From Polyangium sp. y55x31 (lineage in GTDB: Bacteria; Myxococcota_A; Polyangia; Polyangiales; Polyangiaceae): a DNA stretch of 64,000 nt. A program made the translations under genes and the position numbers. Where the stretch lies: positions 170,927 through 234,926 of the forward strand of contig NZ_JARZHG010000009.1 in the NCBI RefSeq assembly GCF_029946505.1, given 5' to 3'. Below are positions 10,603-37,385 of this stretch, in pieces (the stretch's first letter is position 1; each line of letters starts with the position of its first letter). The notes under the pieces are model-generated. The model did no database searches, was not told the DNA's origin, and saw nothing but the letters and a program-made list of their open reading frames with translations.

Positions 10603-12324
10603 TTGTCCTCGTTGAACGATCCCGAGAGCCGTATGTCCCCCCCTCACCCGCGTGGCCCTTCGGATGGGCGCGGCTCGCTGCGTATCGTCCCTCTCGGCGG
10701 GCTCGGCGAGATCGGGATGAACTGCATGGCGCTCGAGCAAGGCGACGACGTCGTGCTCGTCGACTGCGGCGTCACCTTCCCGACGACCGACCTCGGCATC
10801 GACACGTACCACCCGCGCTTCGACTACGTGATCGGGCACAAGGAGCGCGTGCGCGCCGTCGTGCTGACCCACGGGCACGAGGACCACATCGGGGGTCTGC
10901 CCTATCTGCTCGCGCACCTCGACGAGGACGTCCCGGTCTACGGACCGGCCCACGCGCTCGAGCTCGTCAAGCACAGGCTCGCCGAGCACGGCTACGGCGA
11001 CGAGGAGGTCGAGCTCATCCCCGTCGCGCCGCGCAAGACGTACGAGGCCGGCTCGTTCTCGTTCGAGCCCATCCGCGTCACGCACTCGATCGTCGACGCG
11101 GTGGCCCTCGCGTTCCGGACGTCCGCGGGCATCGTGGTGCACACGGGCGACTTCAAGCTCGACCCCACGCCGCCCGACGGCGAGCTGACCGACGAAGAAC
11201 GGCTCGCCGAGCTCGGCGACGAGGGCGTCTCGCTCCTGCTCTCCGACAGCACGAACGTCGACTCGCCCGGCCGCTCGACGAGCGAGCTCTCCGTGGGCCA
11301 GACGCTCGAGGAGATCATCACGCGCGTAAAAACCCGCGTCGTCATCGGGATGTTCGCCTCGAACGTGCAACGCCTCGCCATGCTGGCGAAGGTCGCCGTG
11401 GCCACGCGGCGGCGGATCTGCTTGCTCGGTCGCAGCGTGCAGGCCCACGTCCGCGCCGCCGAGATCTGCGGCCGTCTCAAGTTCCCGAGTGATCTGCTCG
11501 TGCCGCCCGAGCACCTCGGCTCGATGCCGCGCGACCGCGTCCTCATCATCGCGAGCGGCACGCAGGCCGAGCGCATGAGCGCGCTCGTTCGCCTCGCGGC
11601 CGGCACGCACCCCTTGCTCCGGCTCGACCCGGGCGACGTCGTCGTGCTGTCGAGCCGCATCATCCCGGGCAACGACCGGCCGGTCTTCGAGATGATGGGC
11701 GATTTCCTGCGCATGGGGATCGACCTCAAGACGTGGCTCACGGACCGGGGCGTGCACGCGAGCGGGCACGCCCATCGCGAGGAGCAGACGCGCATGATCG
11801 AGCTCTGCCGGCCGCGCTCGTTCGTGCCCGTGCACGGGACCTTGCACCACCTCGTGCGGCACGCCGCGCTCGCCCGCGAGGTCGGCGTCTCGGACGTGCT
11901 CGTCGCCGAGAACGGCGAGGTGGTCGAGCTCGGCGCACGGCCTTCGCTCACCAAGGCGGCGCGCGTGACCGTCGGCAAGGTCGCGACGTACGGCGGCGAC
12001 GAGCTGCCCGACGAGGTGATCCGCGAGCGCGCGCAGCTCGGGCGATCGGGCGTGGCGATGGTGTCGATCGTGCTCGACCGGCGCGGCGCGGTCGCCGCCC
12101 CGCCGCGTGTCGTGCAGCGCGGCGTCGTCGATCAAGAGGAAGGCGCCTCCGAGGTGATGCGCGCGGCGGCGACCGCCGTGTCGCGCGCGGTCGCCGACAC
12201 GGACGGGCGGACGCGGACGAGCGACGAGGGCATGACCGAGGTCGTGCGACTCGCCGCGCGACGCGTCATCGAGGCGAAAACAGGACGCAAGCCGATCGTC
12301 GTGGTGGCGCTCTCCCGGATATGA
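10603..12324 (+). CDS. rnj: ribonuclease J (metallo-beta-lactamase / beta-CASP RNase)
   Basis: HGHEDHIGG motif, beta-CASP region, and C-terminal domain. 573 aa. Confidence 0.85.
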   Translation: MSSLNDPESRMSPPHPRGPSDGRGSLRIVPLGGLGEIGMNCMALEQGDDVVLVDCGVTFPTTDLGIDTYHPRFDYVIGHKERVRAVVLTHGHEDHIGGLPYLLAHLDEDVPVYGPAHALELVKHRLAEHGYGDEEVELIPVAPRKTYEAGSFSFEPIRVTHSIVDAVALAFRTSAGIVVHTGDFKLDPTPPDGELTDEERLAELGDEGVSLLLSDSTNVDSPGRSTSELSVGQTLEEIITRVKTRVVIGMFASNVQRLAMLAKVAVATRRRICLLGRSVQAHVRAAEICGRLKFPSDLLVPPEHLGSMPRDRVLIIASGTQAERMSALVRLAAGTHPLLRLDPGDVVVLSSRIIPGNDRPVFEMMGDFLRMGIDLKTWLTDRGVHASGHAHREEQTRMIELCRPRSFVPVHGTLHHLVRHAALAREVGVSDVLVAENGEVVELGARPSLTKAARVTVGKVATYGGDELPDEVIRERAQLGRSGVAMVSIVLDRRGAVAAPPRVVQRGVVDQEEGASEVMRAAATAVSRAVADTDGRTRTSDEGMTEVVRLAARRVIEAKTGRKPIVVVALSRI

Positions 12325-29452: not shown

Positions 29453-29453
<1 letters not shown>

Positions 29454-31495
29454 CAGAACTTGATGTTACCGACCTTCGGCGCGACGGTACTAGAAGGCTT
29501 CGGTTTTGCCCCGCCGGTCTTCGTCGTCGCCGTGGTGGCGGCCACCGCGCCGGCCGTGGACTTGGCGGTCGGCGTCGTCGTGGGCGAGGCGGGAGGTTCG
29601 GCCGTGGCGACCGGCTCGGCCGTCGGCGCGGCCGTCGACGCGGGCTCGATCATGAGGTCGTCCGCGGGCTCGGCCGTCGGCGCGGCCGTGGCCGCCGGCT
29701 CGGTCGTGGGCGTAGGCGCGGGAGGCGGCGCGACCGGCGGCGGCGTGGGTTCGGGCGGCGCCGCGGTCTGCGCCGCGGTCGTTTGCACGGCCGGCGTCGG
29801 GTTCTGCTTGCCTTGGCCGTTCAGCACGAAGAAGAGCCCGGCGGCGCCCGCGAGGCCGAGCGTGAGGCCGATGCCCGCGACGACGGCGCCGAGCTTCGGC
29901 TTCCCGGACGCGGGCGCGGGGGCCTGCGTCGAGTAGAGCGGCGCGCCCGTGGTCCCCGGCGGGATCGTCACGCGCGGGATCGGCGCGCCCGACTGCGACA
30001 TGCCCATCGCGGCGAGCTGCGCGGCGGTCACGCCGGACTGAGAGACCGCGGCCGGATTCACGCCGGGCGGCAGCGGCATGCCGGCTTGCGACAAACCGGC
30101 GGCCGGGACGCTCGTCCCCGGGATTGCCATGCCCGGCGGGATCGACGCGCCTGCCACGCTCATGCCGTACATCGGCACGCCTTGCAGCGCTTGACGCACC
30201 TGGGCCGAGGCGGAGAGATCCGCCGGGTTCGGCATGTCGAGGTTCGTCGGCTGCGCCGCGTAGTTCACCTGCAGCGCTTGCGCGAGCGCCTGGATCTGCT
30301 CGACCGCGTTCGTGTACCGCTGCTCGGCCTCGCGCGCGCAGGCCCTCGCGAACCACGCGTCGAAGCGCGGCCCGAGGTGCGGCGACATCGTGCTCGGCGG
30401 GGCCATCGGCTCGTAGAGGATCTGCCCGATGAGCGCGGCCATGCCCTCGGCGGACCAGTAGTTCTTCCCGGTGAGCAGGCGATACGCGATGAGCCCGAGC
30501 GCCCAGAGATCCGCGGCGGGGCCGACCTTCGACGCCTGCCCGCGGGCCTGCTCGGGCGACATGTACCAGGGCGTGCCGAAGATCGCGCCGTCCTGGGTGA
30601 GCTCCTTCGCGTCGCTCTGATCGACGAGCTTGGCGATGCCGAAGTCGAGGATTTTCACGAGCGGCGTGCCGTCCTCGCGTTGCGTGACGATGAGGTTCGC
30701 CGGCTTGAGATCGCGGTGCACGATGCCGAGCGCGTGCGCCTTGTCGAGGACACGCGCGACCTGCTTCAGGTACACGACGACCTCGCCCGCGGGCAGCGCG
30801 CCGCGTTGCTTGAGCTCCGAGCCGAGATCACGGCCCTTGAGCAGCTCCATCACGATGAACGGCACGCCGCCGATCTCGGGCGCGACGTCGGCGTCGATGA
30901 CGCGCACGACGTGCTCGCTGCCGATGCTGACGGGCGCGCGCGCCTCGGTGCGGAAGCGCTCGACGGCGCCGGGGTTGTTCGCGACCGACGGGTGCAGGAG
31001 CTTGAGCGCGCAGATCTCGCCCGTGTTGACGTGACGAACCGCGTACACCGCGCCCATGCCGCCACGACCGATGAGCTTCTCGATGCGGTAGCGGCTCTGG
31101 ATCACGAGCCCGGGCTGGAGATCCCCCTGCTGCGGGTTCACGGCCTCGCCGACATCGGCGGGCACGGCCGGCGCGCCGGCAGCGGGGCGCGGCGCGGGCG
31201 CGGGCGCACCAGCAGCGGGGCGCGGCGCGGGCGGCGCGGCGGGTGCGGGCGCAGCCGCGTCGACGGGGCTCGGGAACGGCACCGTGGCGACGGCGGAGGG
31301 CATGGGCGCGTCCGCGAACACGGGCGGCGCCGGCGCGGGGTTTGCCGCGGGGCCGGGGTGCACGGGCATCGGCACCGTTCCCGCGGCCGGCCTGGGAGGC
31401 GGCGCGGAAGGGCGCGCGATCGCGCCGGGCGCAGGGGGAGCCGCGCGAGGCGGCGCAGGCGGTTTCGGCGGCGCAGGCGGAGCAGGCACGAGGAC
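29453..31495 (-). CDS. eukaryote-like serine/threonine protein kinase with a Pro/Ala-rich N-terminal region and a long low-complexity C-terminal tail
   Basis: GRGGMGAVY...ALK (VAIK-like), [11 protein letters not shown], and APE motifs. The start is set at GTG 31495 (GGGAG 5 nt upstream). The track start at 31654 would abut the divergent gene at 31657 and is rejected. Confidence 0.75.
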
Positions 31496-31656
31496 TCCCG
31501 GACGATCGAAAGCAGCCGACAATCGTCGTTCGGGACAGGCTATCGACTTTCGCGGAAAGGGGCAAGCGAGGCGCTCGAAGGGCGCCTGGTCGCGCCCTTT
31601 TTCCGGTGCGCCCTCTCGCGAGGGCAACATGGGTTGACTAGACTCCGCGCGCACCG

Positions 31657-32718
31657 ATGAAGATCACCCGGCTCGGACTACGCCAGTTCACGGTGTTCTC
31701 GGACGTGACGTTCGAGTTCGCTCCTGGGGTCAACGTCTTCATCGGCGAGAACGGGACGGGCAAGTCGCACGTCCTCAAGCTCCTCTACGCGCTCACGGAG
31801 GCGACCCGCCGTTTCGCGACGCGCGGGCCCCTGGAAGACGGGCTGGAACCGACGCTTCCCCACCTCGTCCAGGGCATGCTCAGGGGTGTCTTTCAACCCG
31901 ACGACTTGAGCAGCTTCCTCTCCGCGGTGCCGGGTCGGGCGACGCTCACGCTCGAGTGGGAGCGCGCCAGGCTGGAGGTCACGCTGGAGGACGACGGAGC
32001 GAGCTCCACGCTCACGGCGACGGCCGAAGGCGCGATCGCGGAGGTGGGCCCGCCCCTCTTCATCCCCCCTCGCGAGGTGCTCTCGATCTTCCCGGGCTTC
32101 GCCTCCGCATGGCTCAAGCGCGAGTCCGCGTTCGATCGGACGTATTTCGATCTCTGCGTCGCGCTCGACCTCAAGCCCCTCCGCAAGGGAGGGCCCAAAG
32201 CGCTGCTCGATCCGATCGAGCGTGAGCTCGGCGGCAACGTCGTGATGAAGGACGGGCGCTTCTACCTCGCCTATCCGGGGGGCGACATGGAGATGCCCAT
32301 GGTCGCCGAAGGGGATCGCAAGCTCGCGATGATCGCCTGGCTGCTCATGAACGGATCGCTCTCCGAGAACGCCTATTTGCTCTGGGACGAGCCGGAGGCG
32401 AACCTCAACCCGAAGCGCGCACGCCTGACCAGCGATACGGCTGCGGCGCTTGCCCACGCGGGCGTCCAGGTCTTCCTCGCCACGCACGATTATGCGCTCA
32501 CCTCCGAGCTCGCGCTGAAGGTCGACACCGGGTCGCTTCGAGCTAGCGAGGCCGCCTTCCACGCGTTCCGGCGCGTCGCCGAAGGGCCATCGGTCGTCGT
32601 GGAGCGCGGAGAGAGGCTCGCCGAGCTTTCGAACAACGCGATCCTCGACGCGCTCGCGTCGCTCCACGCGCGGGAGCAGGAAGCCCTGTTCACGACGGAC
32701 GAGGAAGCTCCCCGGTGA
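31657..32718 (+). CDS. ABC-type ATPase (AAA_21/AAA_15, RecF/SMC/OLD N-domain-like), no TOPRIM domain
   Basis: Walker A GENGTGKS, an ABC-signature-like [13 protein letters not shown], Walker [11 protein letters not shown], and H-loop LATHD. 353 aa. Confidence 0.8.
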
Positions 32719-33272
32719 AGACCGTCGACGTGGAGCGCATTCGCTTCTCGTTCGGCGAGAGCTGGACGGTGGTGGAGAAGTGGGACGACTGCCGTCTGTA
32801 TCGCGAGGGCATCCACGAGCTCGACGGAACGAAGGCCGTGGACATCGTGGGCGTGCGCGACGGTGACCTCTACCTGATCGAGGTCAAAGATTTCCGGGGC
32901 CACGCGATCGAGACGAAAAGGCGTCAACCGAGCGAGCTCCCGCTGGCCATCGGCTGCAAGGTCCGCGACACCATCGCCGGCTTGATCGGGGCGAGCAGAC
33001 AGAGCGGGGAGCCGTGGGTCGAGACGTGCGCGAGGCTCCTGCTGGACGGCAAGCGGCGTATCTACGTGATCGCGTGGATCGAGGATCCGGCCCTTCGCGC
33101 GGCAGAACCCATCAGCAAGCGGCAAGTATGGCAAAAGGTGCGGGCCGATCAGCTCAGGCAGCGCCTCGCTTGGCTGACGAACCGCGTCACGGTGGCGAGC
33201 CCTCTCGATGGGGCGGCGCTTGCAGACGTGATCGGGAAGAACCTCCCGGGCGCCGGCGGCAGCCCCGCCTGA
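32715..33272 (+). CDS. small PD-(D/E)xK (restriction-endonuclease-fold) nuclease-like protein, coupled to the upstream ATPase
   Basis: GTG 32715 overlaps the ATPase stop (GTGA). The motif VDIVGVRDGDLYLIEVKD matches D...(D/E)xK. 185 aa with no other recognisable domain. Confidence 0.6.
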   Translation: MKTVDVERIRFSFGESWTVVEKWDDCRLYREGIHELDGTKAVDIVGVRDGDLYLIEVKDFRGHAIETKRRQPSELPLAIGCKVRDTIAGLIGASRQSGEPWVETCARLLLDGKRRIYVIAWIEDPALRAAEPISKRQVWQKVRADQLRQRLAWLTNRVTVASPLDGAALADVIGKNLPGAGGSPA

Positions 33273-34078: not shown

Positions 34079-34954
34079 TCAGCGTGCCGCGGCCATGGCG
34101 AAGGCGATCCCGCTCTGGACCGTGCTCCGTGTGACGATGCCGCCGAGGTCGGCGTGGATCTCGACCAGCGTCTGCGCGACGTCGCGACGAACGCCGGTCA
34201 GCACCACCTTCGCGCCGAGGAGCTGCACCGCGCGGGCGGCCTGGACGAGCGCGTCGGCCACCTGCGTGTCGACCACCGAGATGCCCGTGATGTCGAGGAT
34301 GGCCGTGCGGGCGCCCCGCTCGTTCACGCCTCGGAGGAGCGTCTCCATGGCCTGCCGCACGCGTTGCGCGTCGAGCACGCCGATGAGCGGCATCACCACG
34401 ATCTCGTCGGTGACCGGGATGAGCGGCGTCGACAGCGCGGACAGCGCCGCCTCCTGCGCCTCGATCACCGCTTGCCGGCGCATCCCCTCGGCGAGCGCCT
34501 GCTCGGCGCGCTTGCGATCGGTGATGTCGCGCGCGACGGCGATCACCACGTCGTCCGACATCGGCGTGATGTTCGTGCTGAAGAAGGCCTCCCGACCACC
34601 GGCCGGCAGGTTGTACTCGACCGTGACGAGCCCCTTGCTCTCCAGCGCCGCGCGGACGTGGGACAGGAGGAAATCCGCCATCTCGGGCGGCATGACCTCG
34701 TGCAGCGTCTTGCCGAGCAGCTCGTGGCTCGGCTTGTAGAGAAGGTCTGCCCCGGTGGGCGCGATCTTCAGGTACCGCCCCTCCCCGTTCATGACGATCA
34801 CCACGTCCGTCATGGCCGTGAACATGGCCCGGAGCTCCGCCTCGGCGGCGAGCGCCCCGGCGAGCTCCGCCTCGGCTGCCGCGAGCCGCGCCCGCAGCAC
34901 CTCGACCTCGGCCCGAAGCGACGGGCTTTCATCCTGATCAGCGTTGTCCCGCAT
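34079..34954 (-). CDS. PAS plus STAS domain protein (RsbR/anti-sigma-antagonist-like)
   Basis: A coiled-coil, a PAS fold, and a C-terminal STAS domain (VVMPLIGVLDAQRVRQAMETLL...ILDITGI). The start is set at internal ATG 34954, because the track start overlaps the divergent gene at 35118. Confidence 0.65.
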   Translation of the reverse strand: MRDNADQDESPSLRAEVEVLRARLAAAEAELAGALAAEAELRAMFTAMTDVVIVMNGEGRYLKIAPTGADLLYKPSHELLGKTLHEVMPPEMADFLLSHVRAALESKGLVTVEYNLPAGGREAFFSTNITPMSDDVVIAVARDITDRKRAEQALAEGMRRQAVIEAQEAALSALSTPLIPVTDEIVVMPLIGVLDAQRVRQAMETLLRGVNERGARTAILDITGISVVDTQVADALVQAARAVQLLGAKVVLTGVRRDVAQTLVEIHADLGGIVTRSTVQSGIAFAMAAAR

Positions 34955-35117
34955 CCGTGCGTACGTCCCCTGCGGGACGGACGATGTCCAGGCCCCTGTC
35001 GCGCCTCTTTTCGAGGTGTCGCCGACCCCACCGCCCCCGGGCGGTGGAGCGGAGTGATGGCGAGCACGAGACCAAGCGGGACTACCCAAGGACGTCCGGA
35101 TCTGGGAGGCTCCGCGC

Positions 35118-36290
35118 ATGTGGCGCCGCGTCGAGCTTCGGAATTACCGCAGCATCGAGCACGTGAAGGTCGACCTCGCCCCGTTCACCCTGCTCGTCGG
35201 GCCGAACGGAAGCGGGAAGTCGAACTTTGCCGATGCGCTGGCGTTCGTGCGGGATGTGGCGTTCGACGCGGTGACGGCGGTTGAGCGACGAGGCGGAATA
35301 GGTGAACTGCGACGCTGGCGCCCCACGAAGCCGACGGACATCTCTGTAGACATCCGAAGTGCCGCTTCTGAGCCGGCACTCGAGAGCACGTACGTACGGC
35401 ACTACTTCAAGATTCATAGCGGCCGTGAAGGCAGGTGGTCCTTCAGCCGAGAAATCGTCGAGGTAGTGAGGGACGGGGACGGCGTCTTCAATGTCGTCAG
35501 GGAACGCGGGAGAATTTCGCTGCACACGGAAAGCGCTCTCGACCGACTCACGGAGTTGGCGTCGGCGGCCGCCAGCCGAGCGCTCAGCGACATGAGCAGC
35601 GCGATGGTACTGGCGCGCCAATTCCGAGCCATGAAGAGCCACGCAGGCTTGCGAGAAGTGCGACGGATCCGCCTCACCCCTGACGCGATGCGACTCCCGC
35701 AGCCTGCCACGGAGAATACACGCCTGGATGAGACGGGCAGCAATGTGGCCGCCGCTTACCGAAGTCTCAAGGCAGACGCTCAGGAAGATGTTCTCGCAGC
35801 CATGCAGAAGATCGTGCCGGGTCTGTCAGGGATCTACGTGGAGAACTTCGATCGCTTCCTACTTCTCAAGTTCGCGCAGCGGCAAGGAGATGAACAGGCG
35901 ACATTTTCGGCCGCCGCCATGTCCGAGGGAACTTTGCGCGCCCTTGGTATCCTCATTGCAGCGGAGCAGATGACCAAGGACGAACTCTTGATCATCGAAG
36001 AACCCGAAGTAGCCATCCACGTCGGAGCCGCCCAGCTCCTCTTCGACGTCTTGAAGCGCGCCTCGGAGCGCGGCGCCGTCCTCGTCACGACCCACAGCGC
36101 CGACCTCCTGGACGCCGCCAAGGACGAAGAGATCCTCGTCTGCGCCTACCGCGACGGCGTCACGAAGATCGGCCCCCTCGCCTCCGAGCAACGCGCTGTC
36201 GTGAAGGAAGGTCTCTTCTCCGTCGCGGAACTCATGCGCTCCGAGCCCCTGCGCATCGAGGGCGAGCCGATCCCCGCGGTCGAGCCGTGA
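35118..36290 (+). CDS. ABC-type ATPase (AAA_15/AAA_21, OLD/RecF-like), paralogous to 31657..32718
   Basis: Walker A GPNGSGKS, signature-like MSEGTLRALGIL, Walker B LIIEEPEVAIH, and H-loop VTTHS. The 5' half has clearly lower GC and A/T-ending codons (aga, ata, gga) that are foreign to this genome. Confidence 0.8.
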   Translation: MWRRVELRNYRSIEHVKVDLAPFTLLVGPNGSGKSNFADALAFVRDVAFDAVTAVERRGGIGELRRWRPTKPTDISVDIRSAASEPALESTYVRHYFKIHSGREGRWSFSREIVEVVRDGDGVFNVVRERGRISLHTESALDRLTELASAAASRALSDMSSAMVLARQFRAMKSHAGLREVRRIRLTPDAMRLPQPATENTRLDETGSNVAAAYRSLKADAQEDVLAAMQKIVPGLSGIYVENFDRFLLLKFAQRQGDEQATFSAAAMSEGTLRALGILIAAEQMTKDELLIIEEPEVAIHVGAAQLLFDVLKRASERGAVLVTTHSADLLDAAKDEEILVCAYRDGVTKIGPLASEQRAVVKEGLFSVAELMRSEPLRIEGEPIPAVEP

Positions 36291-36883
36291 AGCGCCTCGT
36301 CTGCATCGTCGAGGGCAAGGGCGAGGTGCAGGCCGTCCCGAACCTCTGCTTTTCCGTCTTCCGTTACCTCGGCGTGGAGGGCTGGCTCGTCGACAAGGAG
36401 CCGATCAAACAGCCGCGTAGCCAGCTCGTCGACGAGCGCGTCCCGAGCCCCCGCCGTCCTTGCCGCAAAGAAGGGATCACACGCGCCGTCGCGCTCGCCC
36501 GCGCACGACGTGCGAACGCCGCGTTGATCCTCTGCGACGCCGACGATGACTGCCCGGCCACCTGGGGCCCGGATGCCGCGCGCGCCATCCCGACCGTCAT
36601 CGATGGAGCCGCAGTCATGGCCTCACGCGAGTACGAGACATGGCTCCTCCACAGCTTCTCGGACGAGGAACGCAGGAAGGCCAAGGTCACCACCGCCGAC
36701 CTGCGCAAGCGCGACGCGAAGGGACTACTCGCCCGGCTCGTACCTGGTTACTTGCCGACCACCCACCAGCTCGACATCACCCGTCGCATCGATGTCGCTC
36801 GTGTCCGAACCCACTCGGACAGCTTCGACAAGCTCGTCCGTGACCTCGCTCGGCTGTGTGGCGTGACACCCCCGCCACGATGA
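36287..36883 (+). CDS. TOPRIM-like DUF4276-type protein, coupled to the upstream ATPase (split-OLD / AbiL- or PARIS-like partner)
   Basis: GTG 36287 overlaps the ATPase stop (GTGA). Conserved Glu in CIVEGKGE and a DxD-type motif LILCDADDDC are as in TOPRIM. 198 aa. Confidence 0.65.
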   Translation: MKRLVCIVEGKGEVQAVPNLCFSVFRYLGVEGWLVDKEPIKQPRSQLVDERVPSPRRPCRKEGITRAVALARARRANAALILCDADDDCPATWGPDAARAIPTVIDGAAVMASREYETWLLHSFSDEERRKAKVTTADLRKRDAKGLLARLVPGYLPTTHQLDITRRIDVARVRTHSDSFDKLVRDLARLCGVTPPPR

Positions 36884-36934
36884 GCCCGCGTCTCTGGAGA
36901 CAGGACCGCAAGCGTCATCGGAGACGGTCACGAC

Positions 36935-37385
36935 CCTCCTGCAAGCCTGGTCGACCTGTCTCCAAGACAGTCCCGACCCTCCCGAATCCCTCCTCGACCG
37001 GCCTCTGGGACGGCCCCGACCCTCCCGAATCCCTTCTCGACCACCCTCCGAGGTGACTCCGACCCCTCCCCGAACCCTCGCCGACCTGTCTCCAAGACGG
37101 CCCCGACCCTCCCGAACCCCTCGTCGACCCCCCTCCGAGGTGACTCCGACCCCTCCCCAAACCCTCGCCGACAGGCTGCCGAGATGGTCTCGACCTTCCC
37201 GCAGGCCTCGTCGACCCCCCCCCGAGGTGACTCCGACCCCTCCCCAAACCCTCGACGACAGGCTGCCGAGACGGTCTCGACCCTCCCGCACCCCTCGTCG
37301 ACCTGTCTCCGAGGTGACTCCGACCCCCCCAGAACCCTCGTCGACCTGTCTGCCGACCTGGTCTCAACTCACCCAATCGACCGGA
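36935..37385. repeat. degenerate tandem-repeat array (~44-bp sub-unit, ~89-bp super-unit, about 5 copies) in a convergent intergenic region
   Basis: Units such as GACGGCCCCGACCCTCCCGAA(C/T)CCCT(C/T)GTCGACC alternate with CTCCGAGGTGACTCCGACCCCTCCCC(A/G)AACCCTCG(C/A)CGAC. It is not a CRISPR array: there are no regular unique spacers. Confidence 0.75.

Follow-up and report, generated by a model that had tools for sequence, protein, structure and literature searches.

We identified two overlapping plus-strand genes in a 64,000-nucleotide stretch of Polyangium sp. y55x31 DNA (contig NZ_JARZHG010000009.1; the whole of this stretch is called the window below) that together probably form an anti-phage defence operon of the HEC-02 type in the Polyangium chromosome. 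The first gene (31657-32718, + strand) starts with ATG and encodes a 353-aa ABC ATPase that is 100% identical to a Polyangium sp. y55x31 protein. The second (32715-33272, + strand) starts with GTG and encodes a 185-aa NERD-like PD-(D/E)xK nuclease-fold protein, hereafter the small partner. The junction reads ...ccccGGTGAagacc..., so the GTG of the partner at 32715 overlaps the TGA stop of the ATPase gene (32716-32718). The resulting 4-bp GTGA start/stop overlap (32715-32718, + strand) is, from the sequence, a translational coupling signal, and the two proteins are co-translated from overlapping genes. Both open reading frames, and the overlap, lie where a preliminary description of this DNA had placed them. 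Their composition is of the coding type, with a GC content at third codon positions of 0.87 (ATPase) and 0.86 (partner) versus 0.46 and 0.47 at second positions, in a window of about 70% GC. Homologues are numerous for each of the two proteins.

The nucleotide-binding site of the ATPase is intact. We aligned 45 sequences, including the Dickeya protein discussed below, and found the expected motifs conserved. The Walker A motif, or P-loop, spans G30-S37 (GENGTGKS; 31744-31767, + strand), with G30, N32, G35 and K36 present in 96-100% of sequences. Residues E218-G219-D220-R221-K222 (32308-32322, + strand; G219 and K222 100%, R221 96%) resemble an ABC signature and are putatively assigned as such from their position ahead of Walker B. 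The Walker B and D-loop region is L241-L-W-D244-E245-P-E247 (32377-32397, + strand; D244 98%, E245 100%, E247 96%), and the H-loop is T276-H277 (32482-32487, + strand; H277 98%). A P137-x-x-E140 element and residues S37, E218, L241, W243, Q271 and T276 are also at least 90% conserved.

A Pfam scan assigned the ATPase to generic ABC/SMC-type families alone (AAA_21, AAA_15 and SMC_N), with no TOPRIM or other extra domain. Its structure model (pLDDT 84.7, residues 143-161 of low confidence) likewise contains no long coiled coil and no extra C-terminal domain. The preliminary description of an ATPase with ABC/RecF-like motifs that lacks TOPRIM and coiled coil thus agrees with the alignment, the Pfam scan and the model. 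The fold search listed the SMC head (score 20.1) and Rad50 (18.7), followed by the ATPases of retrons Eco7 (18.5) and Ec83 (18.3), Septu PtuA (18.0), GajA (15.3), RecF (14.5), AriA (14.4) and OLD (14.0). Judged from the model, the protein is a stand-alone SMC/Rad50/PtuA-like head without coiled coil or fused nuclease and, among defence proteins, is structurally closest to Septu-type ATPases.

The small partner is predicted to be a nuclease whose D...ExK triad, for metal binding and catalysis, is intact. We found 87 homologues, chiefly in Polyangiaceae metagenomes and genomes, and aligned 30 of them (34-76% identity). Thirteen residues are invariant in this alignment: W17, D24, A41, D43, E56, V57, K58, D59, R61, G62, K82, D85 and W153. 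These include the D...E-V-K motif noted in the preliminary description, which consists of the putative catalytic residues D43 (32841-32843, + strand) and E56-V57-K58 (32880-32888, + strand). The tested Dickeya protein keeps the E-V-K block (LIEVKDYR). In an AlphaFold2 model of the partner (mean pLDDT 91.2, pTM 0.88), D43 opens one strand (44-48) and E56-V-K58 lies in the next (51-59), which is followed by a long helix. As read from the secondary-structure string of the model, this topology would correspond to the canonical PD-(D/E)xK arrangement.

Fold searches with the model returned nucleases, including Upx (7.7), N.BspD6I (7.3), AF1548 (6.3), FokI (6.1), Can2 (6.1 and 5.9) and NucS (5.7), and also listed Card1, NgoMIV, McrC, HamA and Shedu SduA. 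A restriction-endonuclease (PD-(D/E)xK) fold, already proposed for this protein, is thus supported, and these searches led to no non-nuclease family. Sequence profiles give fainter signals. Pfam yields no family above threshold and NCBIfam no match, and a PDB sequence search with the partner profile returned chance-level matches alone (HlyU/ArsR at E > 0.05). DUF6661 (Pfam accession PF20366) scores 16.2 bits (E = 0.0096) with a gathering threshold of 27 bits; it reaches E < 0.1 in 12 of the 30 relatives (best 2.2e-8), and some relatives carry a precomputed PF20366 assignment. Hjc reaches E < 0.1 in 6 of the 30. We searched 1.84 billion cluster representatives (clusters at 50% identity) with a profile and recovered 1716 relatives at E ≤ 1e-3, 1077 of them at E ≤ 1e-10, and almost all are stand-alone proteins of 175-200 aa.

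The C-terminus of the small partner (residues 150-181) forms a conserved LAWLT...NLPGAG tail, with an invariant W153 and with G179 and G181 conserved at 90% or more. The tail, of which the tested Dickeya protein shows no equivalent, may be where the ATPase docks.

Both proteins match PADLOC-DB v2.0.0 models for HEC-02 (Hma-embedded candidate 02), which was described as an ABC ATPase plus a NERD-like PD-(D/E)xK protein (Payne, Hughes, Fineran & Jackson, bioRxiv 10.1101/2024.01.29.577857). The ATPase matches model PDLC04213 nearly end to end (E = 2.5e-78; residues 1-343 of 353, profile positions 1-332 of 337) and model PDLC04146 at E = 9.6e-65. The small partner matches PDLC04145 (E = 4e-21, residues 3-143) and PDLC04228 (E = 3.4e-20, residues 7-161). 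The genes have the HEC-02 layout: they are adjacent, share a strand and overlap by 4 bp, and the ATPase gene comes first. We also compared the pair by BLASTP with the tested system of Dickeya dianthicola NCPPB 3534 (WP_024108366.1 and WP_024108365.1, sequences from Table S2 of Payne et al.). The ATPases share 32% identity over 334 aa (E = 7e-56). The alignment of the small proteins covers 125 aa at 31% identity (E = 3e-13) and brings the D and the IEVKD block into register.

HEC-02 models have been in PADLOC-DB v2.0.0 since 2023, and the phage assays are reported in the preprint. HEC-02 was discovered inside Hma systems but is widespread and expected to occur mostly outside Hma loci (Payne et al.). 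When expressed in Escherichia coli, Dickeya dianthicola HEC-02 made at least two coliphages plaque orders of magnitude less efficiently (Payne et al.), and protection required both genes (Payne et al., Fig. S3 legend). The preliminary description could not place the pairing and raised the possibility of a new one. On the sequence matches, the pairing is instead one already catalogued as HEC-02, to which the locus is a divergent myxobacterial addition and not a new design. With this assignment the locus has a name, and a false lead is set aside.

The two genes are rarely apart. We scanned one genome per species with the conserved peptide of the partner as query and identified 48 loci, in 48 of about 185,000 species representatives, distributed over nine phyla (Myxococcota, Planctomycetota, Chloroflexota, Desulfobacterota, Pseudomonadota, Bacteroidota, Acidobacteriota, Verrucomicrobiota and Deinococcota). 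An ATPase homologue lies directly upstream on the same strand in all 48. The same 4-bp overlap is available at about 21 of 47 related loci, and at most of the others a few bases separate the genes. Conversely, 80 metagenome loci seeded with the ATPase, human-gut contigs included, contained the partner in 70 cases; the contig ended too early in 6 and no partner was detectable in 4, so that 70 of the 74 loci with sufficient DNA carry it. The adjacent, same-strand, ATPase-first layout is kept in 69 of these 70. All-against-all clustering of the open reading frames flanking the 48 loci revealed no conserved third gene beyond within-genus synteny; one methyltransferase cluster was seen in 5 of the 48. 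The pair is a near-obligate two-gene unit, and the proposal of a two-gene module with an ABC ATPase and a separate nuclease is supported.

In Sorangium sp. So ce513 (locus L005, 10001-10306) the partner is truncated to a 123-aa product (P0063, residues 1-88 aligned) beside an intact ATPase, which suggests that the system is decaying in this species.

Several points weigh against reading the window pair as an HEC-02 defence operon. The experiments that support the family are reported in a preprint and were done in a heterologous host under an inducible promoter that had been added (Payne et al.). Literature searches (HEC-02, DUF6661, NERD plus ABC ATPase) found no biochemical or mechanistic study of any HEC-02 protein. 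Identity to the tested Dickeya system is only 31-32%, and the Dickeya proteins are best matched by models PDLC04146 and PDLC04145, whereas the best model for the window ATPase is PDLC04213; the window pair thus belongs to a sister subfamily of HEC-02. NERD (Pfam accession PF08378) scores 13.4 bits on the small partner (E = 0.11), below its gathering cut-off of 22.1, and reaches E < 0.1 in 11 of the 30 relatives (best 0.0014); its likeness to NERD is one of fold and motif only and, by the Pfam cut-off, the partner is not a NERD family member. Foldseek matches of the partner to PDB structures are weak throughout (E > 0.01), and these weak matches are enriched in Mus81, SfsA, HincII, Hjc and RecU. 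The pair also lies outside a typical defence island. It is flanked upstream by a divergent Ser/Thr kinase gene and downstream, on the opposite strand, by genes for a SpoU/TrmH methyltransferase and a PAS-STAS protein. It has neither Hma nor any other multi-gene defence system around it, which is how HEC-02 was found, although membership does not require such embedding. Finally, P. spumosum and a Polyangium metagenome-assembled genome share with the window a collinear 9-kb block (85-87% nucleotide identity) that includes the pair, and this collinearity looks like stable vertical inheritance.

One rival reading is a housekeeping DNA repair or recombination module, vertically inherited in Polyangiaceae, in which a RecF/Rad50-like ATPase and an Hjc/NucS-like structure-specific nuclease act on stalled forks or breaks. 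We consider such a role very unlikely. The surroundings in Sorangium are wholly different from those in Polyangium and are in turn conserved among Sorangium species; the locus is thus stable within a genus and not across genera, which matches what an accessory system would show and does not match a conserved repair operon. The distribution described above, 48 species representatives in nine phyla, is patchy, only the pair itself is kept across phyla, and one Sorangium species has lost part of the partner. NCBIfam repair equivalogs gave no match above cut-off. A homologue has demonstrated anti-phage activity, and relatives are embedded in restriction-modification and Dnd loci or lie on a plasmid. 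At two loci (L021 and L024) the pair is located between a Type III methyltransferase gene and a gene for a Type III-restriction-like (REase_III-like) helicase, and at another (L046) it adjoins DndD/PbeC. In the window itself a second candidate defence system, HEC-01, is found 1.85 kb from the pair. A defence role, which the preliminary description had put forward with a syntenic housekeeping operon as its counter-case, remains the best reading.

The plasmid copy, pPg_01 of Pseudanabaena galeata (locus L051), places the pair among toxin-antitoxin genes (RelE/ParE and PIN). Such surroundings would suit an addiction module resembling toxin-antitoxin systems, in which the ATPase restrains a nuclease toxin and stabilises the carrier DNA or plasmid instead of conferring immunity. 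The tight coupling of the genes by overlap and the membership of the ATPase in AAA_21, described in Pfam as 'putative AbiEii toxin, Type IV TA system', point the same way, but the label describes a broad family and is no evidence of toxin function. Most copies that we found are chromosomal, and only two plasmid records were matched. A nucleotide search of plasmids returned nothing meaningful. One match was in a phage-labelled contig. Phage protection, moreover, has been measured for the HEC-02 family. Addiction in place of immunity is quite unlikely in our judgement, and the idea overlaps with the HEC-02 defence reading because abortive infection and addiction are not mutually exclusive.

On the same Pseudanabaena plasmid (2365-10522 of L051), the pair lies between a DUF1257 gene and genes for DUF2997 and an AAA ATPase, downstream of GrpE and Hsp70. 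This arrangement may be another embedding inside a multi-gene system.

The genes could also be intact yet without expression or function in their host, as a silent or decaying relic. A scan around the operon detected no sigma-70-like promoter or terminator, although it used a crude E. coli-type consensus that is uninformative for a myxobacterium of 70% GC. The truncated Sorangium partner is also what decay would produce. In the window, however, both open reading frames are full length, and the catalytic residues are intact and conserved in three Polyangium genomes (69-87% protein identity). We regard a relic as extremely improbable.

The longest open reading frame of the divergent kinase gene (29453-31654, minus strand) encodes 733 aa from a GTG at 31654. 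This is probably an over-extended gene call, because the P. spumosum orthologue has 611 aa and the alignment with the Polyangium metagenome-assembled genome (L001) begins at residue 112. With the shorter gene, about 300 bp of divergent intergenic DNA, instead of 2 bp, would lie 5' of the ATPase gene.

A further possibility concerns function within the family. The Polyangiaceae-type branch is marked by PDLC04213/PDLC04228-type sequences, by the NLPGAG tail of the nuclease and by stable synteny within Polyangium and within Sorangium. It might differ functionally from the tested enterobacterial HEC-02, either in its trigger or substrate or through domestication for an endogenous role; we find this rather unlikely. 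Polyangiaceae genomes are very large and developmentally complex. Given that the literature searches found no HEC-02 mechanism, biochemical findings of any kind for this branch would be new.

The results above establish how the genes are arranged, to which family and folds the proteins belong, that their catalytic residues are conserved and that the two almost always occur together. Beyond this, a scheme for how an HEC-02 pair might work can be drawn by analogy with Septu, PARIS and Gabija. Most likely, the ATPase and the small nuclease would form a complex. An oligomer of the ATPase may serve as sensor and regulator that binds the PD-(D/E)xK nuclease and holds it in check. An infection cue, for which a phage protein, an aberrant DNA end or a change in the nucleotide pool are candidates, could act through variable inserts of the ATPase or through its nucleotide state, and the nuclease would then be released or activated. 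The activated nuclease would cut nucleic acid, most likely DNA, and so stop phage replication, either directly or by abortive infection. Complex formation, the sensing role, the trigger, the substrate and the choice between restriction and abortive infection all follow the analogy, and the pair is presumably active in Polyangium. Payne et al. propose that ABC ATPases are diversified sensors that activate associated effectors.

A second two-gene cassette, HEC-01, lies 1.85 kb downstream of the HEC-02 pair (35118-36883, + strand). It consists of an ABC ATPase gene (35118-36290, + strand; PADLOC HEC-01A, E = 5.6e-88) and a gene for a DUF4276/TOPRIM-like partner (36287-36883, + strand; PADLOC HEC-01B, E = 5.9e-34; Pfam DUF4276, E = 4.5e-6), which overlap by 4 bp. 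The preliminary description was right that a cassette lies about 2 kb downstream, but its view of that cassette as a paralogous copy does not hold: the two ATPases are alike only at the level of the P-loop and Walker B (BLASTP E = 8e-4). We also rejected homology between the HEC-01 partner and the 185-aa protein, which are unrelated by pairwise BLASTP. HEC-01 gave no protection in published assays (Payne et al.).

HEC-01 is a separate cassette that varies among Polyangium genomes. P. spumosum (locus L049) lacks it at the equivalent position, and in the Polyangium metagenome-assembled genome it occupies a different slot, between TrmH and PAS-STAS. Its region of the window has a GC content of about 0.65 versus about 0.70 elsewhere. 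HEC-02 and HEC-01 are neighbours in the Polyangium chromosome, HEC-02 with a fixed position and HEC-01 as a variable cassette. The start of the HEC-01 ATPase gene abuts the start of the divergent PAS-STAS gene at 35118/35119. Right after the HEC-01B stop, and ahead of a minus-strand open reading frame of 430 aa, we detected a tandem repeat array (36921-37356; period 43/87 nt, about 5-10 copies, 68-82% matches) that may be the boundary of the inserted cassette.

In Polyangium, the HEC-02 pair is followed at a distance of one to two genes by PAS-STAS genes (34079-35119 in the window). Three Sorangium genomes (loci L029, L033 and L038) contain a second, divergent copy of HEC-02 with a STAS-domain gene about 1 kb downstream of it, at about 11400-11950. 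The association may be a coincidence, such genes being many in Polyangium and Sorangium genomes.

The pair documents a divergent myxobacterial subfamily of HEC-02. What novelty is left lies in the mechanism of the HEC-02 family and in how unusually stable the position of this branch is within Polyangiaceae. To our knowledge, phage defence in myxobacteria has barely been studied, which makes the pair a reasonable, if not urgent, candidate for testing.

Among known systems, HEC-01 resembles the pair in its two-gene layout, 4-bp overlap and related class of ATPase but has a non-homologous partner. Septu combines the ABC ATPase PtuA with PtuB, as do retron-associated PtuAB systems; there the partner is an HNH protein, whereas the window encodes a PD-(D/E)xK protein that has no HNH match in Pfam or PADLOC. 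PADLOC PtuA models match the window ATPase through the P-loop region only (residues 1-53, E = 1e-7 to 1e-11). PARIS joins the ABC ATPase AriA to AriB, a TOPRIM/DUF4435 effector in the place of the PD-(D/E)xK protein. AriA matches to the window ATPase are confined to the N- and C-terminal ATPase motifs, and the small partner has no match in Pfam or PADLOC to TOPRIM or DUF4435, the effector domains that would indicate PARIS or AbiL. In Gabija GajA and in class 1-2 OLD proteins a TOPRIM nuclease is fused to the ATPase, whereas the window ATPase has no fused domain. Gabija also adds a helicase, GajB, and no helicase gene adjoins the window pair. NERD (PF08378) and DUF6661 (PF20366) share with the small partner the fold class and the D...ExK signature, with weak profile matches. 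The tested HEC-02 pair differs from the window pair in having no counterpart to the C-terminal NLPGAG tail and in its best-matching sub-models, PDLC04146 and PDLC04145 as against PDLC04213 and PDLC04228-type. HEC-02 has the same two genes as the window: a co-oriented ABC ATPase of about 340-350 aa followed by a NERD-like PD-(D/E)xK protein of about 170-185 aa with a (D/E)xK signature.

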